A stretch of DNA of 64,000 bases from Raillietiella orientalis (Eukaryota), in contig JAYWIR010000020.1 in NCBI GenBank assembly GCA_036172245.1, positions 2,728,001 through 2,792,000 on the forward strand, read 5' to 3'. The notes below the pieces were generated by a model. It was given only the letters and a program-made list of their open reading frames with translations. It did no database searches and was not told where the DNA came from. A program made the position numbers and the translations under genes. Below, piece by piece: positions 5,404 to 64,000 of this stretch. Within the stretch, counting starts at the first letter, position 1, and each line of letters begins with the position of its first letter.

Positions 5404-5499
5404 CAAAAGACAGAGGCCTCAGCAACCGGCAGAGGATTTTTTTTTTTTTGGTGGTTCACCAGGTACCTTAAGAACCGTCGCGCCCCTGGAGGCGGCGCA

Positions 5500-6300: not shown

Positions 6301-6753
6301 TTCGAGACTCATCTGCAGCGTAATGGAAACTTCCTAGATGGTTCGGCGGCTGCTGCGAGATGCACGCGAGCTTCTCCGCTGTTCTGATTCCTGGCTTCGT
6401 GACGACGACAACCGTCCTTCCCCTGCCTTCCCGCTGAAGGGACTCCTTGGCCTTTACGCCTTCCAGAACGACGGCTCGCGAGCTGGCGGTCAGACGGTAG
6501 CCACCGCAGCATTGAGGAGGTCCTCGCGACCCTTCCTTCCCATATGGGAAGGAGACACGAACGTCTGAGCTAGAGCGGCGGCTCCATCTGTCCTCCTCTT
6601 CTTCCTCTTCCTTCCTGACTTTGTAAGGACGCCGAACGCTCCTCATGGTAGTGTGGCCCGCGCTCTTGGCCAGTTGGGCAGCAACCTCTGAAGGCCAAGT
6701 CCTCTAAGGGGAGAGTCCAGGTCTGAGAGTAGGTGGGAAGAACGGAGTGCAAA

Positions 6754-6768
6754 CCCCCCCCCCCCCCC
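6754..6768. repeat. Poly-C/poly-G homopolymer (15 nt)
   Basis: Run of 15 C; the minus strand could form a G-quadruplex. Confidence 0.9.
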
Positions 6769-7713: not shown

Positions 7714-8001
7714 GTCTTCTTTGTTCCCTTTTCCTCCACCCCTCTCCCCTATCTCCTCCATTCCCTCCTCCTCCTCTATCCTTTCTCCTCTCTTCTACTT
7801 CTCTCATCCTTCCTCTTCCTCCGCCTCCATCCATCCTCCTTTTCTTCTTCCTCGTCTTCCTTTCCTCCTCTCTCACCCTTCTCCCTCCACCTCTTCCTTT
7901 CTTCTTCCTCCTCTTCCTGCTTCTACTTCCTCTTTTCCTCCTCGTCCTCCTGTTCCTCCACCTCCCTCCCTCGATTCCCCCCCCCCTTCCCTCCCTTTTC
8001 C
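7714..8001. repeat. Long polypyrimidine/polypurine (CCT/CTT) low-complexity tract
   Basis: About 290 bp that is almost purely C/T on the + strand, 400 bp upstream of the receptor ATG. Further (CCT)n runs occur at ~8296-8320 and ~8500-8545. Confidence 0.9.
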
Positions 8002-8398
8002 TGGCGGATAAACACGCTCTTTGACTTGCGGCGCGCTCTTCCCCGGATGATGCGAACACGAAAGATGTTGAGGACGTCTGATCGCTGGGTCCGTATAGGC
8101 GGAGAGCCAATTACGGCATGTGGAGATTTTCCCACCGTGGGGAAACGGCGGGAACGTCCCCATAAAAAAAAAAAAAGACGGGAAGAGAAGGGGGGAAGAG
8201 AAGGGAGAGGGGCGAGCGGACGAGGGAGCTCGAGTCGCCGCACGATCCAGTCCTGCGGCAGCCGGCGTGCTTCCTGTGTCGGAGACCCCCAGGACCTCCT
8301 CCTCCTCCTCCTCCTCCCCTCAGGGAGGGGCTCCTCCACCGACGGGCGCGCCCCGCCTCCAAGGAGCAGCAGCGGCAGGAGCGGATCCAGCCACAAGG

Positions 8399-23300: not shown

Positions 23301-26300
23301 TTTCTCGCGGTCGGTTTCTGGAACGGTAAACACGTGCTCGGAGGAGCATCTGGGAAAATTGCGGTGGGATCAGAAACACGGGAAATCGAGCACGGGGGAG
23401 GAGCCACGCAGGGCATTGAAAGATGAAAATGAACCGGCGAATGCTTCGCTGCGTGCTTTGATCTTCCTGGAAATTTTCCCGAGATGAAGCACGTAATTGT
23501 GCAATCGACGTCGCCATACATCACACTGTGATTAGGGAAATACGGTACGCCACATTTACATGGTATGACAGAGGTCAACTACCCGAGCAGCAGAAGATGC
23601 AAAAGCGCAACTCGATGTCGATCTTCGAAATTCACGTGAACAAGCTACCTGGCTACCCCTTCCAGCCCGAACTCTTCTCCCGTTTATGACATTTCCCATT
23701 CACCTCATCCCACGCGTTTCACTCACGTCCTCTACCACTGAATTGCTGGCTTTCCCTCCCCGATTTCAAAGCTCTGCCTAAAGAAATAAACATCTGATTC
23801 ATCTTGACGGATCCTGCGTCCTGTGAAGATTTTAGGATGCGAAATTTAAAACACGGTTCCAAGGCCACACGATGTCTCAATCATGTGACGCTGTGCATCA
23901 ATGCATTTTCGTTGCAAGAAACCCATCAGAGGCCCTTTGATTTACAATCCACTTTGAACTCGAAGCGATTCCCCGTCTCCTTTTGTGGGACCTGGAAGAT
24001 GTTTCTGAGATGCCATAATGCCTCTCTTTCCCATTCCTCGTTCAGAGACCTTAATTGTTTTTTTTTTTTTTTCTGGCTGCTGCAATGCCTCCTCCATCTT
24101 TGGCATTTTACCCTCGTCCACCGAGTTGGTTCGTTAATTTGTCTCGTATTCTACACATGCACTGTCGACACGGGTGGTGCATTCTATTTCAACCGCCTTG
24201 GGATTCATAAACTAAAGAAGCTCTTGGTGTGATGCAAGGGAGGAAACAAACGAAGATGAATTCCTTCCGGGATCAGCCTTTGGTTTGTCTAATACCTATA
24301 TAATTGATGAGAATAACTAGAAGAAAAGGGGAAAAAATCGGCAGCACCTATGCTGCATTCACACTATTTATTACTATCCGTTCCGATTTACGTTTTATGA
24401 CGAAAAGAAGTAGTAATAAGTAAGTAGAGATTTTCATTGGTTTGCTAAGAACGATGAGCTTTCCTATCCATTTATCATATTTGTTAACCACGAATGCGCT
24501 GATGATGATCATGTCACGAGGTGCACTGCAAAGAAATGAAAATCGTCATTACAAGAACAGTTTAATTGAAACCCATATCGAAGACCGTCGAATATCATTC
24601 AACCGGCTCATAATGCTTCAGTTATCGTCCCCAATTTGAGAGGGGGAGGGGGAGGAAGGAAACACTTTTTTGATTCGACAGCGGCGACCTCCAAAGCAGC
24701 ACATGGTCCAAAACGTGCTGCTGGTCACAGTCACGACCTGGGCAAAGCCATCGCCGGAGTGCAGCGTATCACGGATAGAGGGCCGCGGACCCAAGCACAC
24801 TTTTGTGGGCCCACGATGCGTCTTCGAAGGCTTTCCTGGAGGCGAAGTTTCCCCAGGAAACCGGGAAAAGCGCTCGATGAGGAAATCGGAAGAGGACGAA
24901 CCGAATCCGTTTGCTTCCGAAATCCCGAAAGATTACGAAAAGTAAATACTGCCGTATAAATTTAAATGAAGACTGATGAGCATATATTATAAAGATGATA
25001 TAAAAATAGATGCATGTGTTCATTATATATTTGAATATAATTAATATGTCTATTATATATTTGTATGCAGAGTGATATACATTACAAAGGTTATAAAAAA
25101 TAAACATATGTGTATCATATATATTAATACGTATACTGATATTTAAGTTGACATTTATTTTTTAATAATGTTTAGAACATATATTAATCTATATGCTAAT
25201 TTATATACCAATATCCACATTAATATATATGATACACATACTATAAATTATATTAATAATCTGCATGTTAACAAACATTAATAAATATATATGTTGAAAT
25301 AACATTACTATCAATAGTATATATTATTTATGAACACACACGATTTTCATTTCTTTGAAGCGCATTTTTAGTTGTAATGATACGTATGTTAAAATAAACT
25401 TCTGTAATGATCTGTATTACTACACATTATAAGCATACAGATTTACTTGCTATGATCTTTATAACATATATTAATCCATTCATTAATCTATCCACAAATA
25501 TATGTAATGAGCATAGGTATTTATTTTCTTGTGACCTTTCGGGATTTCGAATGGCTTGAGCAGCAAGACGGGGAAGTTGATGTCTTCAGAGCTTTCTGCC
25601 TGGGAAGGGAATGGAAATAGGGCTCGTGAAACCCCGACTGTTGCCCTTTTGTGCATGAAGTTTCGTCTCCGATAGGGGCACCTGTCGATTTCGTAGGTGG
25701 TGTTGTTCTGGAGGAACTGGGGCATAGCTGGCAAGTAGACACCAAAACGGTGGAGTGAAGAACCGAAGGAAAATGTTCCCACGATCTGTTGAGAGAAACC
25801 ATCATCAGCAAAATGAAAACGGAACTCGAAAGAAATGTTTCTGCGGAAAACCAGAAGCCAAGAAGAAAAGATGCTCAGTGACGACATAAAGAGGACCCGG
25901 AGGAGGAGGGAACTAAAGCTGAAGATTGCAGCGACAGCGGTGTTGTAGAAGCAACCCAGACCAGGGCCCCGTAGGCTTTCCCGAACCCAGCGGTCATCTT
26001 AGGAAGGGATCGCAAGATACCAGCAAGGTTGAAAATGTAGCGAAGAGAATTTCCGCGGCAGGCAGATGAAAAGTAGTTTCCAAAGATGGAGAGGACATTT
26101 CCGCTTTCATAGGAATCCGTAGCGGTGGTACCGAGTCCACACGAGCGACTTCGACGGTTCATCTTTCCGCATGGCAACCGTGCGAGCTTCGTGATCGCGA
26201 TGGTTCTCGTTCATAACGACCTCTGGCCGCCAGAATTAGAATCCTGCCAGCGGCTTCCCAGTTTCCAATCGTCCTCGAAGACCGAGCTTCTCTCCGCAAG

Positions 26301-29300
26301 CTCCAAGGAAGGCTCGGTGTTTCTTCGAGGGTATTGACCTTTTCTCCCTATTTCTCCCTACGAAACGATTGCTTCCGAAAGCACTAAAAGAGATTTTCAG
26401 GAACCCTGGGGGGCCAACTGCTCGACTCTTGCCTCTAAAATGATAGCGTCATCCCATGCAAATGCTTTCGGCGAAGAAGACAAAAATAAGAGTACCTATT
26501 TCCTCCCTCCATGCATGGTAGAAAACATGCAAGTAAGTAACCTGTCTGGTGCCTTCACCCTAGTTGCTTTTTCCAGCAAGAACTGATTGCGCGTTTGTTT
26601 TTTTCGGTCCTCAGTTGGGTGAAAAACTTAGCTCCTCTTAAAATACTCCGCCACACAGATCAGCTTATCCTTTTAGAAGAGCACTGGACCATTCTGTTTC
26701 TGCTAAGTTATTTCCAGTACACTTCGAATTGTGACCTCAGTCTAGATTTCAATGAATGGTATCAAAACAACGTGGACGTCAGCGAAACTTACGTTTTCAA
26801 GGTAAGAGAGAACCCTCTGCTTCCCCTCGTTCTTGCGGCGCTTGCTTGAGAAGTTGATTCTCGTGGTTGACCTGTCGCTGAAAATTGCCTGAAGAGTGAT
26901 AGCGCCGTGAAGCTCACGTACGTGAGATAACACGCATCTTTCCTAAGAGCCGAGGCCAGTAGGGTTCGTACCGTCACGTACGCTGGGATCTGTGAACCAT
27001 GGAGGCACGGAAGACCCGCGCCAACTATCTGCAGCGCTTGGAAGGAATCTTCATCTTACCCTTACGAAAGCAAGAAGGGTGGGGAACAGTGTTCCCGCAT
27101 AGAAAAGGACCGTACGTCCGACGCTGAATGCTCCCTCCCATTCTTCCCGACTGCTGCTCGTGACGATACTCCCCAATCTGGAATCTTCCCCTTCGGTGCT
27201 TCTGGATGAATAGGCACTTCGTGTTGAAATTTCACAGAGCAGGTGGTCTGAAGTAAAATAAGTCGTGCATGCCGGTTGAGAGGATTTTCATGGCGACACT
27301 CTTAGCTCTTTATTTTCCATTTAGATGATGGAGTTTGACTTGACCTCCTCTTCCTGACATCTAACGCTTTCCTACGAGGGTTTTCTCAAAAGCCACGTAA
27401 GAAATGGAAACATCTCTTCCAAACACTCCAAAAGACTTCCCTTGGAATTCGTCGAAAGGTGGTTTTGAACAACCCTTGCGGTTCATTTGCCGTAGACGAA
27501 CGATCAAAAGCGAATTGCCGCTTGACTGTCTTTCCTTATCTTGATGGTCAATGTCGGATTATGTCTTCAGGGATGCGAGGAAAGAGCTCCTTTTTCCGTC
27601 TGCTCCTTCGTCGCGTTCGTAGGATTCGCAGTTCTCTCTCTGTTTGCCTGGACAGGGCACTTGTGCTTCCTTCTGCAGTCAGAGAACCGCATCCACCCTA
27701 GAAGTGTTTGCTCAGGAAGAATCCTGGCAGGTGCGTGATCCGCAGTGTCGAAGAAGGCAGGAGTTTGGGACATCCCCTAAAGCAATCAACGGGAACTCAG
27801 CATGCATGTAGCTTTTCCGTACGATAAGTCAAAAAAAAAAGAAAACCTTGAGGAAGAGGGTGGCAAATCGATTTCTCTTCACAATTAGCGGCTGCATGCG
27901 TGTACGCGTTTCGCTTTCGTTTTGCTTCCATGTCTTTTCCTCCTTCCAGCTTAGGAGACGAACGGAATGGTTTCCTATACCGAATTGCCTCCCCTCCCTC
28001 TCCCAGCTAAGAACATCGAACAGCAGCCTCTTCCTGGCAGGGAATTTCCATTCTTTTTTTCCCTCTTTTTCCTGCTATTTGCCAGTCTCAATTTTTGCAT
28101 TCCTACTTTGGATCTCCTCGGTGCATCGGATTGATGACACGAGCTGCGCTGGTCGAAACTTGAAGCGCGCGGCTTCCGTCGGTGCTTTTCGTATTAGCAA
28201 GGAGCTGGAAAGATCGAAAGATACGAACTCGCAGTAGATATAGACGTAGAGAGGCAAAAACGGTCGGATGATGAAGCTTTGCTGTTCATGAATGTCTTTC
28301 AGGTATCTTCGGATCAGTTCCTCAAGCTGGCACCAGATGTAGCGGAAGTGAATTACCTGAAGCTGATAGCACTGTGCGCTCCAGGTAATTTTTGAAACGA
28401 CCCCTCTATGGATTTGATTTATCTTCCAATGAAGGAATGAAAATATGGGGTGGGTGGAGGAATTTCCAAACCGAGATAAGAGCGTGCAGTTAGGAAGGTT
28501 TTTGCTGTGCTTCGAGCAATATGCGTATTTAGCATGATTGATAGTTTCAGACAGATACTTCAGTCGAACGCTGAGACCCTGATTGGCATTGGGAACAGAA
28601 ATCCATCATCATGAATTGCTGATGCGTTTTCATTTCGATTCGATTTGAGTCTGGAAGTCATTTGTCGATAGCTTCACTGGTGCTTGCTTCCGTTATGGCG
28701 CAAGGTCCAGCACCTAGTACCAGCGTGCTAGCCTTTGATCTGCAACACTCCTGAATCGGCGTGAAAATGTTACAGATAAACCAATCCAATCTAGAGTGAA
28801 GTTTGTGCCTACATACGACTGTTTGGTACTCGTACCAATTCTTGATATATTTCTCTTGAAAAACTGCGTGAGGAATCTTGGACCAAAAAGTCTTAGACCC
28901 ATTCTGCTCTTCGGAAAGAAAAATTAATTTTGAAAAAAAAGCCCGTAAGAAGAACGAATAGGATTGCTCTTGCTCCTCAGAACGCCTTGATACTCTGAAC
29001 TGGTTCCTAACTCAGTAGGCAGAAAGAGCCATCGAAAGGCTCCAGACGGTTCCATCACGCGTTTTGATTCAAACTTTCCCCGCAGTCTTTCATAGTCACC
29101 ATCACTTGCATCCACCATTTCTTCGTGCACTCAGCTTTGAGTAAGGCTGCCTCCTCACTGAAAGCTGAGTTTCAGCAAGCAGTTTTGATTTTTTCAGTAA
29201 GAAGGAAAGAGCAAGCAAATCCGATGTCCTATCTAAGGGAACAAGCAGAGGCCATCTTTCTTGGAAGAGCACTGGTAGAGAAATCATGCCCTGCACAGGT

Positions 29301-32300: not shown

Positions 32301-33955
32301 CTAAGTAAGGTTTGCAGTCGCCAGGTATACTGTTACTAAAAGATCTTAAAAAGATGAAAAACGCATCTCCGCGAACGCAAAGGCAGTGTAAGAACTTTCT
32401 TCTTCAACTTCTGATGAGAAAGGATCAAGTGACTAGAAGGAACACGGATGCATCAGATTCAGCTTCCCATTCTTTGTAGCAGCGACGCAGATCGCCAAAA
32501 GTCACACACTCGTCGGAACAAACGTATTTGCGAATTTGCAATGCCACGTTTACGAAGAACTTGTGCAGGAAGGATTGCGAGGGGTGGAATAATATCACAT
32601 CAAAGTGGAACCGCAGTATGCAAGGATTACCAGATTACTACCACATACCATTTATTGTAGGTATCTTCTAGAGATATCAACAGTAAAGCGGCAAAAACTA
32701 ATTGGATTTCAAGGACCAAATCCTTGAGTACTGGCAACACAGAGCAACGCTCAGAAACATTGATGTAATGATAATGCTGGATATCAATTAGAAAACCATG
32801 TAACTCCAATCAAAGATGCTGGATACGGTGCGTTAGTTGCGCATGCGAGGATGAAGACTCATTAGAAGATGAGCGGTACGATGGGAAATTTGGTAACATC
32901 GTCCCAGCGAATTTCGAATTTGCAAATTGGCAAATGAGGCGTAGAGATGAGCAGTGAATTAGGAATGCCTGGTGTGATTTCACGCATCAAACTGGACGTT
33001 GCTTCTTGGAAGGATAAGATGAATCCATGGATCCAGTGCCATTTTTGAAAGAACTGCAATTTGCCCGTTCTTTTTTCCCGTTCCCTTCGAAAAACACTTT
33101 CGGTGTCCTTCAAAATCGTTGCCACCAGTTCTAAAAAATTTGCAAGAGATAGGCGTCATAGGTCGCAATCATGGGAGGGGAGAGGAAGATCAATGAGGGA
33201 AGCAATACGTAGTACCAAGAGGAAGAATATGTTTTGAAAAGATCATTTTAATAGCTTTCTCGGGAATATTACGATGATTAACGATGACTGTGGTAGGCAA
33301 ACAAATGTCTAAAGCTCTAAAATGAGCAAGTTATTTAAAAAAACAAAAAAAAAAAGCACCGGCGCAATACTCTTTGGCTTGCGTAACTCCAGACTTCCAG
33401 GAAGGTGTCTAAACACTCCGTGTTTCCTCTAGCTTAAGTGCTACCTTTTGGTGATTGGCTCTGTCCTCCCCGTGAACAATCTTTGCTATGATAATTTGCC
33501 TTCATTTCTATTGCGACTTCTCGATCCGCCCTCTTCGTAGAGCAAAAGTAAAAGTGGTTTCCTGAGCACGCGTGGTTACTACGCTCTTGTACACTGGGGT
33601 GTTACCGTAGCAATCTGAAGCTGAGCAAGGATTTCTGCAACTTCAAACAGAAACCCTTTGCTCACAAACTGGTGTTTACTGATGTTACGTCATTTCAGAG
33701 ACAATCGGACTGAGCCAGATACTTTCCGTTGAAATGATTCAGGACCAAGCTCAGAATCTACTGCTCGAACACACCAAAAATGAATACCCCCGGCAAATAG
33801 CACGTTTTGGAAAACTGCTCCTCATTTTATCCCACCTACGTGCTATAAGGTCATTCATTGTGGAAAGTTTGTTTTTCAAGGACATTATGGGGGAAACTCC
33901 AATGAGTACGGTGATCAGATACCTGAAACCGTTCAGAGAAGAACTGAGTTCGTAA
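8399..33955 (+). CDS. dsf: Nuclear receptor of the NR2E group, dissatisfaction (NR2E4) orthologue-like, ~386 aa
   Basis: Exons 8399-8405, 8548-8628, 18865-19026, 23036-23250, 26401-26532, 26577-26801, 28303-28384, 33699-33955. All introns are GT-AG, phases are consistent, total 1161 nt. The DBD reads [46 protein letters not shown]...[16 protein letters not shown]...[14 protein letters not shown], with the Dsf-type DRLLDIPC and [13 protein letters not shown] motifs: [51 protein letters not shown]. Confidence 0.92.
10200..10770 (+). mobile_element. Dispersed repeat family R1, copy B, with perfect tRNA-like T-arm (B-box)
   Basis: GCGGG-TTCGAAT-CCCGC at 10270-10286. Collinear similarity to copy A (inverted) and copy C. 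Confidence 0.7.
13115..13300 (+). repeat. Inverted repeat, left arm (partner 14757-14959)
   Basis: Long exact blocks such as CTCGGAGGAACTTGAATTTCCAGAACGGATTCGTTCGAAAG and TTTGTAATAGACAGACTCGAGCGAGA recur as reverse complements at 14757-14959. Confidence 0.9.
14757..14959 (-). repeat. Inverted repeat, right arm (partner 13115-13300)
   Basis: Reverse complement of 13115-13300 with scattered substitutions and one ~15-nt insertion. Confidence 0.9.
16005..16075 (+). repeat. Short dispersed direct repeat, copy 1 (partner 18391-18465)
   Basis: Shared core TGAACTAGCATCAT (16046-16059 and 18436-18449) within ~70 bp of collinear similarity. Confidence 0.75.
18391..18465 (+). repeat. Short dispersed direct repeat, copy 2
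   Basis: Aligns with 16005-16075 with one 4-nt indel. Confidence 0.75.
19300..20020 (+). mobile_element. Dispersed repeat family R1, copy C
   Basis: B-box-like GGTTCGAATAC at 19423-19433. Shares GCTGCGGTCTCC, TTCCCCTCCGGTTGTGCAA and GGATTCATA blocks with copies A and B. Contains repeated CCCTTCGG motifs. Confidence 0.7.
24955..25510. repeat. AT-rich fold-back island in dsf intron 4
   Basis: Abruptly very AT-rich. Perfect 22-bp inverted repeat at 25107-25128 / 25219-25240, plus nested shorter inverted matches. Confidence 0.75.
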
Positions 33956-34235
33956 AACGGACCCGACTGCTACCTCTTCGAAACCACGTTCTAGCCTTAA
34001 TTAAAGGAAAACAAAATGTAAATCACGCCATTTTACTGTTGGGACACACAGCACGGTCCTACGCTCCGAAGAAGCAAGACCAGCATACGCGGTAAGCACA
34101 CGCCGAATTCACAGAATGCAAGGCGAAGTCATTAAACACATACATACAAGGGTTTCAGAACCAAAGAACATTTTATTTGTCATGAAGAATCGTCCCAAAT
34201 TATAAACACAAAGCAGGCTTGCACACCCCGTGAAT

Positions 34236-37200
34236 TCACAAACTACCATTATGCAGCCCTACGGTGGGGATCTGGCAGCCAATAGATTCCACGTAGAACC
34301 CTATACTCGTCAGCTTGTCCGCTGAGAGGACACGGCGCCCATCAAAAATGAATGCTGGTTTCACCATTGTATCGTACATGCGCGAGTAATCGTAGGTCTG
34401 AAAACGAAAACATACATGACAAACACACATTCCATTGCAAAGGACCTTGAATTCATCCCATTCTGTTAGCACGACGAGAGCATGGGTCCCTTGCGCCACG
34501 GAGTAGGGGTCATCACACACTGTAACAGAAGAGCGCAGTTTGCTATCTCCTACGAGGCCCATCGACGAATACACAGCTTCCCTGGGCACTTTGGGATCGA
34601 ATATCTTCAACCTCGCTCCTTCCTCCAGCAATCTTTGGCAAATGTAGATGGCTGGGGATTCACGGATGTCGCTCGTGTTCTTTTTGAAGGCAAAGCCCAG
34701 AACACCGATCGGCTTGTCTGCCACCGTGCTAAACATGGCACTGAGGATACGTGAGACGAATCGATTCTTCCGGTACGCGTTCAGATCCATGACCTGGAAG
34801 CGAACAGTGCGCTGATTTCCCCCAGTTTCCAACCTGCTGCCAATAGGCTGCCACTTCATGCAGCTTCAGCGTTTCGCAAATGTAAACCAGATTCAGAACA
34901 TCTTTAGGGAAGCAACTTCCTCCAAAACCTTGAAGGTCGGACATGTTTCGATCGCTTCGACCCACCGGGCTTACCGATAGACGCTTCCAAGAATTTCGGA
35001 CCAATCCTGGAGTCCAGTCCCACGGCACGCGCAACTTCGGCGACGTCTGCTCCCGTTTCTTCGCAAATCGCGGAGACGGCGTTGATGCTGCTCACCCGTT
35101 GCGCCAGGAAGGCGTTGGCAACCTAAGCCCGGGTCACGGCGTTACCACGAGCAGCCGATGGTTACCAGTTTCGACAGCTCTGAAGACCACGTATTCATGG
35201 AGATGATGCGCTCGCTTGGAACCCATCGCTCGTAAATGCTCCGAAGAGTGTTCATCGCGGACAAACCTTCGGAAGTGCTTTCGCACCCGATAAGGATGCG
35301 GTCAGGAGTGAGAAGGTCGGTGATCGCATTGCCTTCTGAAAGAAATTCCGGATTGGACAAAACCTATATCAAGCATGTGGACAGCAAAATTAACGTCACG
35401 AGACCTGGTATTTGAATCCAGGGCGGACGTTGGCGTCCAAGATCTTCTTGATGCTTTCGGCAGAGCGCACGGGCACGGTGCTCTTCTCGACAATAATCTT
35501 GAAGCCATCTGAAATTTCGGCGATTAAACGCGAACACGCCTCTACGTATTTCATGTCCGCCGCACGTCCCTAAACCTCTTGTCTGAACGGGTTATTAAAT
35601 TTTGTGTTTACTTTTCCATGGCCAACAGCTTTCGTAGGGGTATTCACAGAAATGAAAACCAACTGTGCTTCTTTAACCGCCTTTTCAACATCGGCGGAGA
35701 AAAAAAGATTTCGGTTGCGACAAACTTCAACGATCTCTTTCAGACCAGGCTGAAAAGGAATTGGGTTTGATCATTGCAAGTCTTTTTCCTTTTGAAATGA
35801 CGACGGTTCCTGGAGAATCACAAAAATTAGAAAGCGATTCATAAAGCGGGTGCTGAAACTTTACATTTGAAGGCACCGTCGACTGTGCAGAAAAAATGTC
35901 ATCCACCTGGTAAATGATTTTTCCGAATGCACAGCACAAAAAGAATTCACATCTTGATTTGGGTGATAAACAAACGCAAAATAGATAGCTGACGTGCAAT
36001 GCACTTGCACAGCCCCTTGTGGTCACAAAGTGCGAATCTTCGAGCATTACCACGACACGGAACTTTATTCTATGTCCTTTGCAAAACTTGACGTGACAAG
36101 GATGCTTCGGTATCCTTCGAAGGCTTGGAGATTTGAAAGTCTTCAAAAGCGTACAGCGAAGTTTTCCTGACCAAGGACGGATTGTGAAAAAGGACCCTGA
36201 AGCTTCCCTTGGGCTCCAATACCTTTTCTTCAGTTACGAACCACATCACAGTACTGAGATAAGAAAAAACAGCCAAAAACACTCTTCCCTCTGTTGGAAA
36301 GTGATTTCATGCCATGCATTATGTTTGCGAATCTTAAGTTTCATTCAACACTGCAGAAATCTTGAATCCAATTAAAATAAAATAAAAGAAAGAATGAACG
36401 AATAAAGAGCAAAATAGTTAGGAAAACCTTCGAATTTGAGTAGATAATCGAATTTAAAATTAATGATTAACACAAATGGCCACCACCACAACGAGAAGAG
36501 CACGGCTGCAACCCAACCGCACCCAAAGCCTATTCTTGAGCCCCACGCGCTGCCCACGGTAATGGGTCCACGTTTCCCTTCAACAAGGTGTCTCTTGTCG
36601 ATGTGCTTGAACTCTGATTTGTAACGGAACTTCTTCAAGTTCTGGAGAAACAGGCCCGTTCGAATCACTGCAGAAAACAGACGCGATAACATGATGATGA
36701 AACGGTCGCTGAGGACCGCCAAGGGACACCGGGTCAAAACCACGTTCCTGGAATTCCGCGTGGAGCTCCGCCACCAGGAGTGCAGCTATTACTGTCGTTG
36801 ATGACAGATGCACTTGTGACTGGATCTCTACACTCCCTACGGGCTCTCCCACTTCCCTACCGATGCTCAAGAGCAGCCCGTATCTGCGAAACATCCTCAC
36901 GAAAAAAAATAACCATGTGTCACCAAGCCGATGGGCAAAAGACCACATCGTGGCACTTTTGATGCAGACTCGCTGGCAGATTTACACGTGAAACACATAT
37001 GAAAATTAAGCTGCTGAGCATTTGAAAAAGGGTTCATCAGAGATTGAATTTCTTTTGGTCTTCGAGAATGTGCTAAAACCAAATCCAAAACCCCATGTTG
37101 CGTTTTTTTTGTTTTTTTTTTTTTCCCGTTTATTCTTCATCAGACAGGAGGAATGGTTGAAACCCAATATGGTGGATGGCATGCGTTTTTCCATCAGCTT

Positions 37201-37688
37201 TGGTAAGCTGCCATGAAAAAAATTTAAAAATCAAAAAGAAACCCAACACAACATTTCTTAGAAAAGGAGGGAACGTTAAATTCTAAAATAGACAGGATCA
37301 AGACAAGGAGCACTGGAAGATCGTGGAACACACGTGCATGTTTTCCTAACTTGCTGTAGGAACAAGTAAAGCTGAACGAAATTCTGTTTTTCTGTTTTTT
37401 TTTTTTTTGCTTACAAAAAAGATCAGCTCAGACCCTCAGGACGAAACGTTACTGAAACTAAAAGTTGCTTCCTTTACCTATTTCACTTGTCTCACTGATT
37501 AAACTAGAAATCAACATGGCATCACTTACTTCGTAAATGGGGAGGTTTTCAGAATTCCACTCGTTAATACGAGACACGTTCATATCCACCACAGTGACAA
37601 GAATTTCCGGACATTTGTAGGCCAGCACACTACATGTTGGGCCACCTACATACCCTGCTCCAATGCAGCAAATCCGTTCTATATCCAT
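34236..37688 (-). CDS. UGDH: UDP-glucose 6-dehydrogenase (sugarless/sqv-4 orthologue), ~470 aa
   Basis: Exons 37688-37530, 35749-35612, 35569-35405, 35363-35166, 35122-34975, 34928-34834, 34793-34446, 34397-34236 (1413 nt). Motifs: [48 protein letters not shown], catalytic [25 protein letters not shown]. Confidence 0.97.
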
Positions 37689-38002: not shown

Positions 38003-39111
38003 ATATCAAAATCAAAAGGAAGAAAAAGTATTGATCCAAAAAGGATCCACTCATCCTTACTCGAACCGAGAGTATCTCTCTGAACACAGAATCGCTTCCG
38101 TCTTGATAAGGATGAAATGAGAAATCTCTTTGTTCGATGTTCCAGTTTCAATACGAATATTATTCTATGAGGCTTTAGCTGTAAATATTTACAGTTTAAG
38201 CCACATAGTTACCTTGAATTTATAAATATTTAAGCACTTCCTTAGAAATCATTAGGAAAATATCCATCAATTTCATCTCAAATGAGAAAATAGTATGCAA
38301 TTTCCAAAATACATAACTAAAATGATCCTGTTATTTTACTCACTGATGTCACTTTCGATGTTATAAAATTTCATGAATGTGACACACCTTTAAATAAATC
38401 TATGAATTCTCAGAGATTTCGACGACACGTATTAATTTGCTAACGAAACTGAAGTGGTACTTGAGACAGATTTTTCAAAAAACACGAAAATAAAGTGATT
38501 TCATTGAACATGTATGCAAGCATTCAATACCTGTGCCTGTGTTTGATATAGTTCATAGTGAGAATTCTGCATTTCTATTAAAGTTACTCAGACATAAAAG
38601 CAGTCACATTCGAGGAATTTAACATCTTCAATTTAAAAGGTGACTGTTAATTTCTAAGGAGGTAAGTAGCAGTTTTTAGGCAGTGAGAGTTGGATCCATT
38701 CATCATACCAGTTTTAACGAATAATAAGGGCAAGTTTCATTTGAAGTCTTCCAAACACTGTATATGATCCAGATTCCCGGAAATAAAAACAAATGATACC
38801 TTGTTTTCAATAAATTTGGCAATAATAAATTTATTTAATAAATGTCCATGTATCAAGTCAAGTAAATAAGCAAAATTTCATTCGGACAATCATTTCTTCT
38901 ATTCATCACCATGAAGCATGAGATCTCAATGAAAGAGGAAATTTCGTGCTTTACCGTTGCTTATGCATTAGCTTGTTTCCATAATTAATCTCTTGAAACT
39001 TTCTTGAATGTGCCACACCAGCGCAAACCGTGGTGTATATTTCGAAGGGTTGCAAGCTTAATGCTATAATTTCTTTACAACTCTTACGTGTTTTAATTGT
39101 ACATTTTGAGG

Positions 39112-40931
39112 ATGGTAATTTAAGGTCTAAGTAAAAACACGTTGGTTTATGTTTCAGGTGAAATTTGGCGTACAGAATGTTTCATCTCAACTGAGTCCCG
39201 CGTTTCGAGAAAATAAAGGGTTGATGAAATGTAAGCCTTCTGATTTATAAAATAGGAACCTGTGAATTAACCTGCGTATTTTAAGCATTACAGCATACGG
39301 AATTAGGTTACCATGAATGCTGCCAGCGTTGCGTACAGATGTGATTCTAGGTGGTTTCAAATTTTACAGTATGCAGAAATGCGTTGTGACATTATTTGCT
39401 TATTTGTCTATTTATTTTGTCTGGTATTAGTGTAGCTTGTGTATGATTGCCAATAAATAAGCTGAGTGTTTTTCAGAAAACATCTTCAGTTCCATGTATG
39501 TGTGCAATGGTTCGCGACCAAGAAGTTAGTAAAGTACCTTTATTATTGTTTACAATTTAATACTTTTCTTTATTTTAATTAGACTTTGGAGTATTTTTAT
39601 GCATTCATTCTTGAAATGTGTTAAGGTCTTTTGAGGGGATTTAGCAGTTCGTTTCGTACAAGCAATAGATAACATTCTATCATCCCTAATTTTTACAAAA
39701 TAATATTACGCCCCGAACTGCTATAGTTTCTATCGACTTGGCTGCTTATTGATGTTAAAAGCTGACACAGTTACCGTGTCAGTTTTCAGTTTCAATGCTG
39801 TCATTTGAGTATCCAATCATTGCCTTCCCAGTTGATTTGCCAGCCTATAAATTCCGTGTTTCATGTATATGTTGCAAAACTGAACACATTGTAGAATGGT
39901 AGGAATGGTATGAATGAGTTTGCATTTGTTATACAAAATGTTCTTGTTTCCGCCATTGTTTCATTGTTTTGTTGTCAGAACTAAAAGCAGTTCCTATGGA
40001 TGTTTGCATTTATTGAATGTGAAAATTTCATATAATTTATATCCTTTTCTTCATTAGGTTACAGCGTTTCTGACATAGCATCTGCCGGAAAGCCAACCAA
40101 TCCATTAGATATGGTAGTCCCTGAAAGGATCCTTGTTACTGGTTTTGTATCTATAGGAAAAAATTTTTATTTATCCAACAGATTTTGATTCTTTATATTA
40201 GAAGTTGAATCAGTTATCTTTATTAGTTATTAACTATGTGATGATTGTAAATTAAATTAATGAAAAGTCTAGACTCTAAAATTCCAACCTGTAATCTGTT
40301 TAGTGTATCTGTAATTTTTGAGAATAAGTGTATTGGATTCTATGGTATTTTAACTTGAAGAATTTTGAAAATTCATGCATTCTTTTTGTATTCTACTTAT
40401 TTTATGCATCTCCAGGTGGTGATCAGCATATTGCTGCACATGCATTTCCCAGAGAATTATCATTTGAATATCCCAGACTTCCTGGAGAAGACTGGCAAGT
40501 TAAAGTGCAAGTGAGTCTCGATTCTGCAAGATGCTTTTTTGGAAAATTGTGTCAGTGCAGAACCCTCCTTCTGTCATTACCTTGGATCAGCATCATTTTC
40601 CTGTTATAAGTGAATGCTCTGAGGAATTTCTTGAAAACGATCGCAAATCTGCATTGGAACAGTTGAGATATTTACATCTTCTTTGCAATTATTCCTGAAT
40701 GCATGCTGTTACAGAGAGAAAGCTGTCCAAAACTGTGTTATTTCCAACAGCAATCCAGCACTGATAGAGAAGGATGTCCAGTTGCTCAAATACCAGTTGA
40801 CCCAAGTTTATGCCCGGCTACATGACTTGGAAGTATGCAATAGCCAACGGCAGAATCGCGAACTCTTGCTTGGAACTCTAGGACTCGCATATTTCTCCCT
40901 GAAAATAGTTTTGTGGCTCTTGCGAAGTTGA
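39112..40931 (+). CDS. MFF: Mitochondrial fission factor (Mff/Tango11 family), ~190 aa; 5' exons less certain
   Basis: Exons 39112-39114 (ATG only, tentative), 39158-39230 (tentative), 40058-40141, 40416-40510, 40561-40661, 40715-40931. Contains the Mff repeat MVVPERILVTG, NPPSVITL (TPPxVLTL-like), a coiled coil LKYQL..VYARL..LE and a C-terminal tail anchor ending WLLRS. Confidence 0.85.
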
Positions 40932-41002
40932 CTAGTTGCATAATGAAGTAGTACTTTGCACAAAATGTGGAAGGCTATGGCCATTAAACCACATTTTGTT
41001 GT

Positions 41003-41008
41003 AATAAA
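41003..41008 (+). terminator. Poly(A) signal of MFF
   Basis: AATAAA 72 nt after the MFF stop codon. Confidence 0.6.
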
Positions 41009-41050
41009 AGCCCGTAAATATATTTAATTGAAGTCTACAGTAGCTTGTAA

Positions 41051-42571
41051 ATGAACAGAGAAGAGGATCAGAATCCTGTGCTGTGTCCAGACTTGTGCAG
41101 CAGTGAGGAAGATCTAAAAGGTGATGCTATTGGACACACACTGTTCAGTGAAAGCTGGGTGATCAAGGTGGCTATGAACCTCACACAGGCAAGCGGAAAG
41201 CAATACAGCAAATTAGTTAGCTGTAGGTAGTGCCAAAATACTGCTCTTCTGAATTGAAAGGAAGTGGTGAGCATTTGATGGAACTGGATGAGACATTGGA
41301 TGAGGATCTATGCCAGTTGTGGGATATGAGTGCAGATACAGAAGTATCAACCAAACTTGTGGATTTGAATGTGGCTCAGATGTTAGCAGAAACAGCTGTG
41401 TACAGCAAGTCACCACGTCTCACAGTAAGGGCACTTAAAGCCCAGATTTCATTTTCGTCGATATTCAGGAAATCTGTTTGGGCATTCTAAGCAATGTTTT
41501 GAGCCATCGTATTGGGCAGAACATGTCACTCATAGATGATTCCCTGCTTACATCTTTGACTTTCTGTTTTTATTATCAAGATTCTTTAGTGCTGATTCAA
41601 GTATGTCGTCTTTGGATGGCCTGTTTATGGAACCTTCACCATCATTCACTTCAGTTGGAAAAATGGGTAGATGCGCTCTCTGAAACTTCCATTATAGAGC
41701 GTCTGCAATATCTCCTATTAAGTAGCACTAACAGTAAGATATGCAAGCAAATAGGTATCTGCTTGACTTCATAGTAGAGGATCTTCTCCTGAAGGTGTTC
41801 CAAGTCATCCACTGCATGTTTAATTCACTTTCTGAGACTGGATTGGTTGCATACGTTCGATCTTTGCATCAAGCTGGTGAGCTGTAATATATTTAGTAAA
41901 TGCAACTGAGCATATGATGTGTAGGTATCCTCAAGGGCTTTTCTGAAGCAGTATCTGAATTAGATATAAACACAGACTATGCAGTTCAGCAGGCATGCCA
42001 GCATATGCCTTGCCTGACTGAAGTCCTGCACCAGCTTATTGTGGGTTTCCCATTAACAGAAATGCAGATGCCTTTGACTTGTGACACAAGCATTTTTTCT
42101 GATTTATGGCAGCTGTTCAAAAATCATGTCATCCATCATTTTAGCACAACTCAGGACTTTGAATTTTGTGATACACATGAGGCTGAAGATTTGATTCAAG
42201 CTTTGGAAGTGTTACAAACATTAGAACAGCTAGGAAGACTGCATCCCAATGTGCAGTTCCTGCATGTTATTTGTTCATCATCACTCATTATCCATCCAAC
42301 TCCTATTAATGAAGTTGAGACACTGCGATGTGCTATTATGGATTATTTTTATAATTATGTAAAGTGCTATCTAGAGGACAAAGTCTTGATGGCAGCTCTG
42401 TTCCATATGATGGATGCATTACCAATACAGCATGCACGCTTGTTACTCTTGCATGTCAGGCAACATTATCCAAAGACTATGCTGACCTTGGAGCAATACT
42501 ATCATTCCAATCCAGAATTTCATAAAATTTTGCTACAGACTCTCTCTCCCAGTTCTGATGTTAATACTTAG
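41051..42571 (+). CDS. SAAL1: SAAL1-like protein
   Basis: Exons 41051-41188, 41227-41424, 41469-41733, 41778-41876, 41925-42571 (the last may hide in-frame introns). Motifs GDAIGHTLFSESWV, LCQLWDMS, SKSPRLTEICLGILSN and SSTN-x-DLL match SAAL1. Confidence 0.88.
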
Positions 42572-42723
42572 ATGTGTTGTACATTGTTCTGGAAGAAGGG
42601 TGGTTTTAAATACCATGTAACGTTTTGACTGTATTTTTAGTAAAGATTATAATCTCTGTAACAAGTCTCATTTCAGTATTTATGAACTTAAGACGGATGA
42701 TACTTTTGTGACCTTTTGCCTTA

Positions 42724-45032
42724 ATGTGGCTGTCTGGTGTGTATTTCACACTTGTAAGATGGGTTATTTATGTATTTTTGGTCATTCCTGTTTGTAATAC
42801 AGTTAGAGTATTTGATGAGCTACATATAAGGAAATTGAGGTCAGTGAAGCCATGGCTTCATTTGCTTAACAGAACATTTCTCTCCAGGGAGGAGGTGCGC
42901 TCCATGTTTTATTTTGCCTACTCCAATTACATGCAGTATGCTTATCCATTAGATGAGCTCCGTCCTCTGAGCTGTGGTGGAATGGATACTTGGGGCAGGT
43001 GAGTTACTGGTAATCTTACATACCGAGGAGTACTTTTCTTCTAGCTATTCTCTAACATTAATTGATTCCTTGGATATGCTAGCCATTTTGGGAAACGTAT
43101 CTGAGTTTGCCCGTGTTCAAGAAATGGTGCTGAAAAACAGTAACTTCAATGTAAACATCAATGTTTCTGTTTTTGAAACGAATATTCGCATTGTGGGCGG
43201 TTTGCTCAGTGCGCATCTCTTAAGTTATAGGTGAAAAATGAGCACGTTTTTTAATATAACTTGCTAATAATATCAGGATGGGAACTGTGAAAGATACAGA
43301 ATGGCCATGCAAAGGACCTCTTTTAGATTTAGCAGTGGATTTAGCAAGTAGGCTGCTTCCAGCTTTTGATACTCCAACAGGTGAAATGATTATTTTTTTT
43401 CTTTTTCATGACTTCTGTCATTCAGGAATGCCTTTTGGAACTGTGAATTTGAAGCATGGTGTACCAGTGGATGAGACTTCTGTGACTAGCACAGCAGGAG
43501 TTGGTACTTTTCTTATTGAGTTTGCTACTATTTCTCGTTTAACTGGTAACTCCATCTTTGAAGAAGTAGGCAGATCCAGTTTGTAGTCGTACATCAAGTA
43601 TATAGTATTTAGGTTGCCTTACGTGCCATTATTAGCCTCTGGAAATATCGATCAAGCCTTGGTCTTTTTGGAAATCACATTAATGTACTGACAGGAGAAT
43701 GGATTGCACAAGATGCTGGCATTGGTTGGTTTGTAATTTTAGACCTGTTGTTATATTTTATTAATAGGAGCTGGAGTTGATTCTTATTTTGAATACTTGG
43801 TCAAGGGTAGCATGTTACTACAAGAATCTCGCCTACTGAGTATGTTTCAGATCAGTAATGCAGCAATTGAGAAGTATCTTCGCCATCATGACTGGTATCT
43901 TTGGGCTACTATGACTAAAGCTCAGATCACTATGCCAATCTTTCAAAGCTTGGAAGCTTTTTGGCCTGGATTACTTAGCTTGCTGGGTAATTTAACAGTT
44001 TCTTTTATAAAGCTTATGCTTGCAATCAGGTGATATTGATAAAGCCATGCGAAGCCTGCATAACTATCACAAAATTTGGAAGCAGTTTGGCTTCATTCCA
44101 GATTTTTATCATATTGCTAAGCGTAGTGTTGTAGAAGGACAAGCAGTTTATCCATTACGTCCTGAATTAGCAGAGTCATTAATGTATTTATTCCGTGCTA
44201 CAAAGGATCCTTGGCTTCTGTCATTTGGAGAAGATATGCTACGCAGCATCCAGCATTCTGCCAGAGCTCCTTGTGGTTATGCTACAGTTAGTAATCACCC
44301 CTTTATGCATTTTACACTCACTGTAGGTGAAAGATGTTCGATCTCATCACTTGGAAGATCGCATGGAATCCTTTTTTCTTGCTGAAACGACCAAATATTT
44401 GTTTCTTTTGTTTGATCCTGGTAATTTCATTCACAATTCTGGTACATCAGGCACTCTGATTCTTTCAAATAATCAGGAATGCGTTGTTGATGCAGGTGGC
44501 TATATTTTTAACACAGGTGAAACGAGCAGTTAATTTTTTATTCCATTTTGATGATTTGTACTCCAGAAGCTCATCCAATTGATCCAGCAGCTCTCACATG
44601 CTGTCAGAATTTATTCAGTTACTTGAATGACTACAAAGAAGATCAGTTAAAAGCTCTGATGAAGGTGCAATTTCCAACCCGAATACCATTTGAGCTGTTG
44701 ACGGAATGGAAAAAGAAACATGTGGTATGGAGAGCTTCTGCTAATGTTGATTTCATGAAGATGTGTAGGTGGATCAGACTTCAAATTCAAATGATCACAC
44801 GAAAGATGAACCAGAAACATCAGAGGATCCGCAATTTTGCATCAAAGATGAAGTATACAATTATAATGATACATTTTCTTTGCTGGCCTTAAAAGCCAGG
44901 TTGTTGTTTTTTCGGAATTCTTCAGCTTTTGATACATTTCAGAAGCTAAATGATACTTTTATGTCTTGTTATCAAAGGCCGTTTTTCAGATATTTTTATA
45001 TCCAGGGAGAAGTTTATGATCTAGTCAATTAA
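42724..45032 (+). CDS. EDEM2: ER degradation-enhancing alpha-mannosidase-like protein 2 (GH47)
   Basis: Exons 42724-42839, 42888-42998, 43045-43230, 43277-43380, 43426-43565, 43613-43724, 43768-43986, 44030-44286, 44327-44516, 44567-44724, 44769-45032. N-terminal hydrophobic signal, [77 protein letters not shown], and an EDEM2-type C-terminal SCxxxPF segment. Confidence 0.95.
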
Positions 45033-47069
45033 TTTATTGAAAAAATTTTTGCTGTGAAAAATGGGAAAAATTTATTGTTTTAAACTAAATAGTTTTTGAT
45101 ATTAAAAGTTTAAAATGTTGCCAGATGTGCAAAATAACTGTTGAAAATTCTTTTGGACAAATCTCTCAAATGTTTTATCTAACAAACAGTTATGTATGAA
45201 GTTATGAACACATACAACTGACTTACACATGAGAAACATGAAGTGAAGACAAACAATAATTGAGGTACATCTTCAACATTCTGGAATCTATATTCAATTA
45301 ATTCCTAGCATTAAAAATGAAAGCAGCATTTCATGGAAGGAATCTCCAGAGAGAAAAAATGATCAATGATCCTCAGCTTTGGTACTGTCACAATACATAA
45401 AATTCCCTCTGGAATGTATGCATTGTATTTTTAAGGCTCATTTAATTCGACACTTCTAGTCTTATATCAAAACAATTTTTTTAATTAAACAGTTCACGAG
45501 AACATACTCGTTGCCTTATATCAGTCTTTCTTCAATTCCATGGCAGTTTGCTTTTTCAGTGCAAATTGCCTTCAGATGCTACAGATTGCATAAATGAGGT
45601 TATCTTGATCTGATTAATGCTCAATTGCCAAATTTTGAAAAAGATAAGATCATGATGGTTCTATTGCAGGAGTAATTTGAAATTACAATATGACAGAAAT
45701 TTTCGTATGTACCTTTAAACGAGAATGGCCGTTTCTACAATTAGAATAAACCTACTTCGCTGATGTGCACCTGAAGACCACAGTACAATGCTCAACATCA
45801 TGTTGCCCAGCGCCGATCACATTCCCTAAAGATCAGAATTCCTCGTCTAAAGGCACGAAAATCACAATCATGCATGTCATAATCCCCTTATTTCTCATTG
45901 AAAAAAGACCACGTTAGGGGGATACAAAATCGAAGTGGTAATTGGTGGGTGCTCTCGTTCATTGCTTGATACTGTATCGAGGGTTTGTCTATTTTCCTAT
46001 ACAATTTCATTTTACTGCATTCCTTACAATGCAATGAGATATTTGTGACGCTGTTCCCTCTCAAAACGGCTGTGTATGTGACTACTTAGTGGTCAAGGAT
46101 AAAAGTCTACTTAGAAGATGCTATCGACGCTGCGAAAACAAAAAAAATTGTTTGGTTGCAATGACCGAGCAATAACCGGACCTTCAAATGGACAGCATAT
46201 ACTCACAAAATTAGTGGATCACAACCACGCTTCAGGTGAAAGTGCAGGGACTGCTCCGAAGATCACAGAGGTGAAAAACACGGGGGTAGGGGGAAGAAAA
46301 CGAGAAAAATCTCCCCTGCCAAATCGCGTGCAGCTGCTGCCCCTTCGCACACCGGTGGTGTCCTCAACACCGCCCTCCGGAAGAGGACAGCAAGAAGCGC
46401 AGCGAACGGCCAAACACCTGCCGACACAGCACCATCACAACGTCGGCTTTGCAGGCATTATTTATCCGTGTGTTGAAACCCCTGCAGCAAATGATGAATT
46501 ATGTTTTCGGGACATTTCAGTCTCTCGGGATTGTGTCTTTCGAGATTATGACCCGAACCCATCCGGAGACGTATTTTCCTATTGGTTTGTATTCGGATTT
46601 TATTTTTTCCACCCAGTACCTGGAACTCCAATAATCTGTTTTTCCTGATCTGAACTGTAATGCAAAATTAGGCTTATTCAGTATGTGAGCAATCATCTTA
46701 TAATACGGGGGGGGGGATAATAATAATAATCATTCGTGTTGAATTCTTATAACTACAGGTAAAATGTGGCTTTTCCTTCGATACCTAAACTTTCCCCACA
46801 TTTTCAGGACAAAATCCCAATTGACCAAATTTCAAACTAGATACCTCAAACTGAATTCTTTTGTTTTACAATCTTTTTTTCTTTTTTTTTTCTTCACGTT
46901 AATTGCAAACAAAGAGCACATTAAAAATGTGTAATGCAAGTTTATTACTCTAAAGGAACCTTAATTAAAAGTAAATAAGTAACAGCAATAAAGACTGAAT
47001 GGTTTGCTTTATGTACTACAAACTATATGAAATTTATCCAAGGCACTAAGGGTACACTGTTACTGTCGA

Positions 47070-61581: not shown

Positions 61582-64000
61582 CTACACTTCTGTAATGTTT
61601 CTGAACTGACGTAAAGTCCCACCATCGTAAACTTGTGGTTTTGGTTTAGGCGGCACTAAAGGCACAGTGTTTCGGACCTGTTCACAAGGAGGGGATGTTT
61701 CCGACGGATGGGAGGAACTGTGAGAGGACCGACTTTCATATGCGAGGTAGGAGTCGTTTCTTTCGGCAACACTAGGTCTTTGCAAATTGGTAGTGGTGTC
61801 GGTACAGCTACTACGGGTGGAGACCGAGTCTCCGTGCAACGGATTTGGTCTACACGGATCATTGGGGAAAGGAGAATTCTGCTGACGCCGCTCGTGTTCT
61901 CCCAACAACTGACTAGCGGTCCAATGCACAGGAGAGTATAGAGTTCCGTCGGGACGAGGCATGGAGGGTGGTCTAATATCCGGGAGGTGTGCAGGGGATT
62001 TTTCGAAAGACAAAGTGGATTTTTTCTCCTTAAGGGCTTGCTCTTTGCGACGTCGGCGGCGTGTACCAAGGTAAGCAGCCAGTAAGGCAAGTAAGAAAAG
62101 CAGTAGGATGGCAGAAACAGAAATGATCAAAATTTCTGCAAGGGAAAGAGAGGGACGCATAACGGGCAGAGGATTGTCAGTGGGGGTTACAGTAGTGACG
62201 TCTGCTGCTTCGATGTATACGCTCACTATGTTGGATAAGCGACCAACGTTCGTTCCATCGCTGGCTCTCATGGCTACGTAATACGTCCGCTCCGTCGACA
62301 TGTCCAAGTCGGAAAGGAAAACATGCAGTTGCTCCTTTGAACCTGCTACGTGGGTATCTGTCACATTCTTAAGCAACCTTGCGTTGGAAAAATGCCACAG
62401 CAACGAACGGAAATCGGTAGAGTAACGCAATTCGTATAAAGATGCTAGAAAGTCGGATAAGTTTCTGGTTGAAAACGCCCAAGGCTTACCAGTCCCCTCG
62501 AAGTAATCGTTTCCCGGAGCAGTCCATCTCAGAAGGATGCTTCCTCCGTAAACGTATTCCACTTGCAGATCAGTGACTTTGCCGGGAGGCAGGTAATCCG
62601 ATGCAGACGGAATAGAATCGATCACAAACATGGTTCCTATTGCCTCCAAGTTGAAACTTTCAGTATTGGACCACTGAGCAGTCTTTGGAATCCGGCTTCC
62701 GCAGCAGAAGACTTGTGCTACCACCGACCCTCGCATCGGAAGAAAAATCGCAAATAAATCATTACCTTCACCCAGACCAACGAGGTAACTGGTCACTTCA
62801 GGAACATCCGTGGCATTCACAGTTATCCGATATGCACCAGAAAGTTGCAAACGTTTGGAAAAAATGGTCGAATACACTCCATCTTCCATAACAAGATCGG
62901 GGACTGCAGGATAAAATAACAAAAATGCAACCATGTTGTCAATCTTTCACCTCCTTTTCCATCGTCTATAAGGGGAACAGCGATGGGCTGACCATCAGCG
63001 TTCTTTACGTAGGCGACTACATTGGCGCCTTTCACCGGAGCGCCGTTCCACAAAACTTCGGCATAAATCGCTAGCGGGTCACTTGGATTCGTCACATTGT
63101 CCAGTTGATCCCAAGTTGACCAAGTACGCAAAGTTGCTTTGTGCTTCGCTTCAAATTCACGAGCCAACTTGCGTCTCACCTCCACGATAGTTTGCTGTGG
63201 ATACAGGGCCGTGATATCCATTGAATACGTCCAATTTCCAGGTTCAGGACGATTCAAGACGGTGCTTCTCACGCCCTCTTGGTTGCCAAAGTTGGGGATG
63301 TACGGCGCACCGGACGGAGGGATCAGCTTCAGGTTAGTTGGAGCAAAATACGCAGATTGGGAGAAATAAAAATAGACGCTGAATTCTGCAGTGTCTGTTT
63401 CTTGCTCCAAGGAAAAGCTTCCAGATATGGGGGTCACATGCAACTGCTGTTTTGAGGCTGACAGAAAACTCTCAGAATAGATCTGAAGGATGAAAGAAGT
63501 AACTAACGTCAGCACTCGGCTGATTGGTACCTTTGGTCCTGACAGTGGTTCTTCTTGTAACACCAGAAGCAGACTGTCTAAAAGGCGTGCCATGTTGCTG
63601 AGCAATCCTTGCTGCTTAGCGACTTCTTCTCGAATTTCCAGATAAAGGCCACCAGTTGCGGGGGCGAGAAGGCGCAGGTCGTTGTTGATTGCTGACGGGT
63701 ATGCGATTACTGACATCCTAATCCTGTTCTCCTTCAAAGTGTTCTTAATTTCTAGGATGTGCTGAGGTTTCTCGGTTTGCGAAGTCAGGAGTATTATATC
63801 TGCTCCTTCCGTACCCAGTTCGTCGCTCCTCAGCATCTTCATGCGGAGGAAGTGTAAGTGGACCAGCAGGGGGCGGCAGACGGAAGACTTACTTGCAGTG
63901 CTTTCGATACCGCAGCCTGCAGGTCATTCATTTCGGTAGGACGTAGCTCCCGCATGGAAAGTTTCGTGTTCTTTTCGTCAGTCAAAGGTTTGATCACTTC
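61582..64000 (-). CDS. CLCA: Calcium-activated chloride channel regulator (CLCA) family protein, 3' part; 5' end beyond window
   Basis: Exons >64000-63893, 63836-~63531, 63482-62951, 62903-62766, 62717-62490, 62444-61582. VWA tail (IILLT...LAPATGG), PEPGNWTY, IYAEV..NGAPVKGANV.A, LIDDGKG.PD...DGVYS, FnIII PPGKVTDL..L.WTAPGND...GTASLYELRYS, SNIV, a TM helix and a cytoplasmic tail. Confidence 0.9.

Follow-up and report, generated by a model that had tools for sequence, protein, structure and literature searches.

A candidate spliced-leader-resolved polycistronic unit of MFF, SAAL1-like and EDEM-class genes in a compact stretch of animal DNA

The window (the whole 64-kb stretch of DNA that was analysed) carries, by direct reading, three unrelated housekeeping genes arranged head to tail on one strand (+): MFF, a SAAL1-like gene and a gene of the EDEM class of GH47. 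Their layout is as follows:

40635..40931 (+): open reading frame of the last coding exon of MFF, with a Pfam Miff match and the stop codon TGA at 40929-40931
40932..41050 (+): spacer 1, read directly, with 119 nt between the stop of MFF and the ATG that follows
41051..42571 (+): SAAL1-like gene in five exons, from a gene model, with the ATG at 41051 and the stop codon TAG at 42569-42571
42572..42723 (+): spacer 2, 152 nt from the SAAL1-like stop to the EDEM ATG, read directly
42682..42711 (+): upstream open reading frame of 9 codons plus TGA within what would be the EDEM leader, by direct reading
42724..45032 (+): EDEM-class GH47 gene, from Pfam GH47 matches, PDB names and a gene model

Read directly, the stop and start coordinates and the lengths of both spacers are all as the earlier note on this DNA had given them. 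Such very short gaps between coding sequences on the same strand (119 and 152 nt) are as found in metazoan operons that are resolved by spliced-leader trans-splicing.

The name MFF is borne out by a Pfam Miff match (1.2e-08) that covers positions 220-291 of the 291 in the profile and runs through the C-terminal tail anchor, and a second Miff stretch (profile positions 84-108) is found in the open reading frame at 40504-40698. Pfam places GH47 in three exon reading frames of the third gene, for which the best names in the PDB search are an alpha-1,2-mannosidase fusion and EDEM1, both ranking above ER mannosidase I (1.8e-10 for EDEM1 vs 4e-04 for ER mannosidase I). The EDEM class is thereby supported by both Pfam and the PDB search, but these matches do not pin down the EDEM2 subtype that had been claimed for the gene. 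The name SAAL1, which had been given to the middle gene, finds no backing from any of the tools used (Pfam, word-indexed search, HMMER and Atlas). Pfam found no family in this gene, its last exon gave no match in a word-indexed search against longer proteins and no usable match in Atlas, and the only neighbours of its exon 3 in Atlas are armadillo/HEAT-like. HMMER against 1.84 billion representatives returned one match only, repetitive and 23 residues long, which was taken as spurious. The gene may still be SAAL1, going by an apparent N-terminal resemblance to that protein, and we call it SAAL1-like throughout.

Other genes of the window identified by Pfam are UGDH, a gene with liprin-type SAM domains, TRAP-beta and a nuclear receptor. 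As the gene families found in the window are animal ones, the window is animal DNA. A search for relatives of the locus in metagenome contigs gave 111 pattern matches, none of which was confirmed by tblastn.

The SAAL1-like ATG at 41051 is immediately preceded by an in-frame TAA, and the gene model interrupts this gene by four introns of 38, 44, 41 and 48 nt (41227-41264, 41425-41468, 41734-41774 and 41877-41924, respectively). In its gene model the EDEM gene has a signal-peptide-like start and at least nine curated mini-introns, again of 38-48 nt, so that this range holds for every coding intron curated in the two downstream genes (n=13). In this respect the locus resembles Oikopleura, a compact chordate genome in which introns peak near 47 nt.

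Hexamers of the poly(A)-signal type lie in both spacers and beyond the last gene:

40983..40988 (+): ATTAAA, 52 nt past the MFF stop, the proximal one of two poly(A)-signal-like hexamers
41003..41008 (+): AATAAA, 72 nt past the MFF stop, the distal one of the two
42639..42644 (+): AGTAAA, the sole poly(A)-signal-like hexamer 3' of the SAAL1-like stop, 68 nt after it
45101..45106 (+): ATTAAA, 69 nt past the stop of EDEM, where the unit is presumed to end

To place these positions in context, AATAAA and ATTAAA were listed 3' of six stop codons in the window, that of liprin being an assumed stop. One or the other hexamer is found 45-72 nt after the stop in five of the six genes examined (52 and 72 nt for MFF, 69 for EDEM, 45 for the nuclear receptor, 59 for UGDH and 69 for liprin), which indicates that 3' UTRs in this genome are short; the sixth gene, the SAAL1-like one, has AGTAAA alone, at 68 nt. 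In the non-coding DNA of the window, the chance of meeting at least one AATAAA or ATTAAA per 31-nt span is 0.118, and AGTAAA occurs at a frequency of 0.0008 per nt. Both junction hexamers probably do function as poly(A) signals of the genes upstream of them. Since they sit where such signals are expected, the mRNAs of these genes are predicted to terminate no more than a few tens of bases short of the following ATG. That ATG comes 43 nt after the end of the hexamer in spacer 1 (AATAAA at 41003) and 80 nt after it in spacer 2 (AGTAAA at 42639), and this leaves almost no space for a promoter and a 5' UTR.

A second line of evidence comes from the distribution of CpG, for which one feature stands out upstream of the three genes:

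39001..39400 (no strand): CpG-retaining patch between the divergent UGDH (-) and MFF (+) genes, seen in CpG observed/expected ratios (o/e)

The 200-nt bins starting at 39001 and 39201 have CpG o/e values of 1.01 and 1.07. From 39801 to 45400, by comparison, values range from 0.00 to 0.65 in 27 of the 28 bins of this size, and TpG/CpA is in excess. This depletion of CpG with an excess of TpG/CpA across the three genes is, as judged from base composition, the footprint of germline gene-body methylation. Within 250 nt on either side of the ATG, CpG o/e is 0.80 for UGDH, 0.91 for MFF (ATG at 39224) and 1.0 for TRAP-beta, whereas it is 0.37 for the SAAL1-like gene and 0.24 for EDEM. The statement that both spacers lack the CpG-rich patch present at three independent gene starts therefore holds. 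We presume that 39001-39400 is a promoter shared by UGDH and MFF, and it is the sole candidate promoter 5' of the trio. A small rise in CpG is also present at 40801-41000 (6 CpG, o/e 0.65), just 5' of the SAAL1-like gene.

Between each junction hexamer and the next ATG, the following candidate splice sites and introns were located:

41039..41040 (+): AG acceptor candidate 10 nt before the SAAL1-like ATG, the proposed trans-splice site and possibly also the MFF cleavage site
42675..42676 (+): candidate AG acceptor, by direct reading, with the ATG of EDEM 47 nt further on
41001..41040 (+): candidate 40-nt mini-intron GTAATA...ACAG, enclosing the AATAAA (donor score 0.7, acceptor score -0.7)
42640..42676 (+): candidate 37-nt mini-intron GTAAAG...TTCAG (donor score 2.8, acceptor score 0.0)

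The AG ending at 41040 is one of four between the hexamer and the SAAL1-like ATG, while that ending at 42676 is the sole YAG between the hexamer and the EDEM ATG. It had been pointed out for this part of the sequence that the distance from the end of the hexamer to the AG is 32 nt in both spacers and that both contain AAGTCT. The letters are correct on both counts. In 20,000 shuffles of the hexamer-to-ATG stretches, a common AG offset nonetheless arose in 10.2% and a common YAG offset in 2.8%; the equal 32-nt spacing (P = 0.10 for AG, 0.03 for YAG) is modestly unusual only, in a comparison chosen post hoc. The two spacers have eight hexamers in common, against 7.4 expected (P = 0.45), and because sharing at this level is what chance provides, AAGTCT carries no weight. 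The motif argument is thus accurate in its letters and near chance in its statistics, and the coincidence would not by itself carry a claim of an operon.

That motif coincidences are near chance is also what would be expected if the three genes were simply independent and tightly packed, each of the two downstream genes having a promoter of its own within its predecessor's last exon or 3' UTR, with transcripts that overlap or abut, no leader and only accidental similarity between the junctions. Tight packing is seen in other parts of the locus as well (the stops of the nuclear receptor and of UGDH, at 33955 and 34236, are only 280 nt apart), and compact animal genomes free of operons are known, Dimorphilus being an example in the excerpted account (PMC7854359). 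The CpG rise at 40801-41000 lies where a promoter of the SAAL1-like gene could be sought, and TATA-like runs can be picked out, by eye only, 20-30 nt before 41041 and 42677. If transcription began past the poly(A) site of MFF but before the ATG, however, the SAAL1-like mRNA would have a leader of about 30 nt or less. Moreover, neither downstream gene has a CpG-retaining patch such as is seen at the three other gene starts, and the same layout is repeated at two consecutive junctions. On balance we consider it doubtful that the genes are independent.

A different possibility follows from what lies upstream of the two AGs. These had been described as unpaired acceptors, and that description is not borne out: a donor-like GT is found 40 and 37 nt upstream of them, the curated introns being 38-48 nt long, and since a donor-like GT at this distance is at an ordinary intron distance for this DNA, the acceptors are not evidently unpaired. 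Overlap of such a GT with the hexamer is seen at both junctions (2/2), and at none of the five other poly(A)-like hexamers in the window (0/5). Of random AGs, only about 22% and 13% have, 37-48 nt away, a GT that scores equally well as a donor, giving a joint chance of roughly 0.03, although this comparison too is post hoc. The GT and AG could accordingly delimit ordinary mini-introns in untranslated sequence, splicing of which would remove the poly(A) signal. Cleavage would then end the upstream mRNA, while splicing would let the transcript run into the next gene; the transcript would start at the MFF promoter or at a site within the upstream gene, and the equal 32-nt spacing would simply reflect the narrow rule of intron length.

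Several observations weigh against such introns. With a splice-site weight matrix built on 13 introns only, and the true introns scored leave-one-out, the junction sites sit low in the range of the true introns for both donors (0.7 and 2.8) and acceptors (-0.7 and 0.0). The 37-nt candidate is shorter than the shortest curated intron, and the positions of the hexamers are better explained as those of poly(A) signals. The second reading frame of a spliced MFF-SAAL1 bicistronic mRNA would, in addition, not obviously be translated. We therefore regard mini-introns of this kind as improbable, and keep the overlap of GT and poly(A) hexamer as a rival reading and an unexplained asymmetry rather than as the main one.

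The reading that we prefer is that the trio is a polycistronic unit resolved by spliced-leader trans-splicing, of the type with a short or absent intercistronic region, to which we give about an even chance (roughly 0.5). From gene anatomy, signal positions and CpG footprint, all three of them observed, we infer a polycistronic transcript, a leader and the exact processing sites. A single transcript from the CpG-retaining region near 39.0-39.4 kb would cover MFF, the SAAL1-like gene and EDEM, with AATAAA (41003) serving as poly(A) signal of the first gene and AGTAAA (42639) as that of the second. Cleavage would occur about 30 nt or less past each hexamer, at or just before the AGs ending at 41040 and 42676, and the downstream mRNAs would be capped by spliced-leader trans-splicing at these AGs or at a neighbouring one. 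Little or no intercistronic RNA would be left, as in the operons of Ciona and Oikopleura and in the SL1-type operons of C. elegans.

This operon reading is a reasonable one, with independent if indirect support from the positions of the signals and from the CpG footprint. The earlier proposal of one promoter near 39 kb driving a polycistron is supported in part, and indirectly, by the hexamer positions and by the continuous CpG depletion, the motif argument made for it being weak. Counting against an operon are the donor-like GTs that precede both AGs, the T found directly 3' of both AGs, the CpG rise at 40801-41000 just before the SAAL1-like gene, and the upstream reading frame at 42682-42711, which an EDEM 5' end at 42677 would leave in the leader. 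A scan of the 64-kb window against Rfam gave no match at the gathering score, to a spliced-leader RNA or any other family, and ARAGORN found no tRNA gene in it.

Comparison with known systems draws on excerpts of the published accounts. Those on Ciona describe operons in which genes abut without intercistronic DNA, 1,310 such operons being predicted (PMC1488885; PMC2760879), with cistrons a median of 1 bp apart (PMC1488885) and an operational definition of gaps < 100 nt (PMC1488885; PMC2760879; PMC6389100). As is the case in Ciona, the genes of the present trio are on the same strand and functionally unrelated, the upstream 3' end would about coincide with the downstream trans-splice AG (as proposed here from sequence), and gene-body-type CpG depletion is present where Ciona has gene-body methylation. 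The junctions differ in having AATAAA and AGTAAA, whereas AATAAA is reported as absent within 40 nt of the junction in 16 of 18 characterised Ciona operons (PMC1488885). The first gene, MFF, is multi-exon, unlike the single-exon first genes that are described as abundant in Ciona operons (PMC2760879).

In Oikopleura, according to the same kind of excerpt, 27.8% of genes belong to operons, for whose resolution unpaired AGs are used, and the genome has gene-body methylation (PMC6389100), a combination of methylation and abundant operons that it shares with Ciona (PMC6389100; PMC1488885; PMC2760879). The Oikopleura trans-splice AG is usually followed by A (PMC6389100), while both AGs here are followed by T. 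The intercistronic regions are given as 23-30 nt, a point of likeness to the present locus, and the upstream cistrons as lacking AATAAA (PMC1488885), in contrast to the AATAAA and AGTAAA of the present junctions.

Operons of the C. elegans SL1 type, described in the excerpt as rare, keep the upstream AATAAA and show hardly any sequence, or none, between their cistrons (PMC1488885), and in both features (canonical AATAAA upstream, little intercistronic sequence) the present locus is like them. In the usual C. elegans operon, by contrast, SL2 is used and the spacer measures about 100 nt (PMC1488885), and the 32 nt from hexamer end to AG fall well short of this. For the chaetognath Paraspadella gotoi, operons of housekeeping-type genes are described, with gaps of less than 250 bp as their definition, and gene-body methylation is described as absent from chaetognaths, ctenophores and early nematodes (PMC12460157). 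Both Paraspadella gotoi and the lineage with SL1-type operons thus differ from the locus studied here, in which gene-body CpG depletion is strong. Of these systems, the layout most resembles the operons that leave hardly any RNA, or none, between cistrons, namely those of Ciona, Oikopleura and the C. elegans SL1 type.

A combination of these elements can also be envisaged, in which the poly(A) signal is nested in the 5' part of a GT...AG stretch of mini-intron size, and operons occur in a methylated lineage that is not known for them. One and the same AG would then serve cleavage/polyadenylation, cis-splicing that deletes the signal and leader addition, in competition with each other. To this we attach a very slim chance.

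Queries with UGDH and liprin exons matched arthropods, molluscs, vertebrates and others alike, at about 44-53% identity, among the best 120 matches for each; neither a close relative nor any tunicate, Oikopleura included, was present among those best 120 UGDH and best 120 liprin matches. When UGDH exons were placed by tblastn with a named cladoceran protein, single exons showed 70-79% identity to it. Introns of 38-48 nt together with a mosaic CpG depletion fit tunicates better than chaetognaths, ctenophores or nematodes, as these groups are described in the excerpts referred to above. It is somewhat more likely than not that the DNA comes from a lineage already known to trans-splice, and the trio, if it is an operon, is probably one more of the type already described in sea squirts and their relatives.

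The suggestion, made in the earlier note, that this would be a new system depends on the host lineage. Should the host be a tunicate or belong to another trans-splicing lineage, the trio would add another operon to a well-known type, and its value would lie chiefly in annotation. Should it lie outside such lineages, operons would have had an independent origin in a genome that keeps gene-body methylation. The overlap of GT and poly(A) signal, if functional, would bear on how 3'-end formation is balanced against formation of the downstream 5' end in operons without intercistronic RNA.

Some further features of the window deserve mention. Just 5' of the first recognisable MFF coding sequence lies a mini-intron-like unit (GTAATT...TTTCAG, 39115-39157, +) of 43 nt with a donor score of 6.2, which could be a 5' UTR intron or a further acceptor for leader addition. 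The housekeeping genes next to UGDH (34236-37688, -) are CpG-depleted, but the DNA in which UGDH lies is not (o/e about 0.8-1.2); the first intron of UGDH is long (about 1.8 kb), those after it are mini-introns, and its last exon contains a 48-nt in-frame insertion that looks like an unspliced mini-intron within the reading frame. Two long open frames of 454 and 366 aa at 61585-63923 (-), also in DNA that is not CpG-depleted, gave nothing in Pfam except a weak match to a cadherin cytoplasmic tail.

The nuclear-receptor gene extends over at least 15 kb of the + strand (18843-19259, 26541-26846 and 33683-33952) and comprises a zf-C4 domain and two ligand-binding-domain exons. Its best PDB matches (COUP-TF1, HNF4 and NR2C2) make it NR2-like, and its DNA-binding motif looks NR2E/TLX-like. 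A stretch of 500 nt within this gene (25001-25500) has a G+C content of only 20%. The nuclear-receptor (+) and UGDH (-) stops converge at 33955-34236, each having a hexamer of poly(A) type downstream at a distance of 45-59 nt, and given how close they are the 3' UTRs of the two genes must be very short or overlapping.

Upstream of the nuclear-receptor DNA-binding exon is an 8-kb block (5000-13000) of 55-69% G+C and CpG o/e of about 0.7-1.1, with CCT-rich tandem repeats at 7764-7965; its long open reading frames belong to no Pfam family, and the block could represent an extensive unmethylated domain belonging to a developmental gene. Next to it, two adjacent inverted-repeat pairs (13107-13280 and 14778-14967; 74 and 73 nt, 92% and 90% complementary) flank about 1.5 kb and resemble transposon or foldback-element termini.
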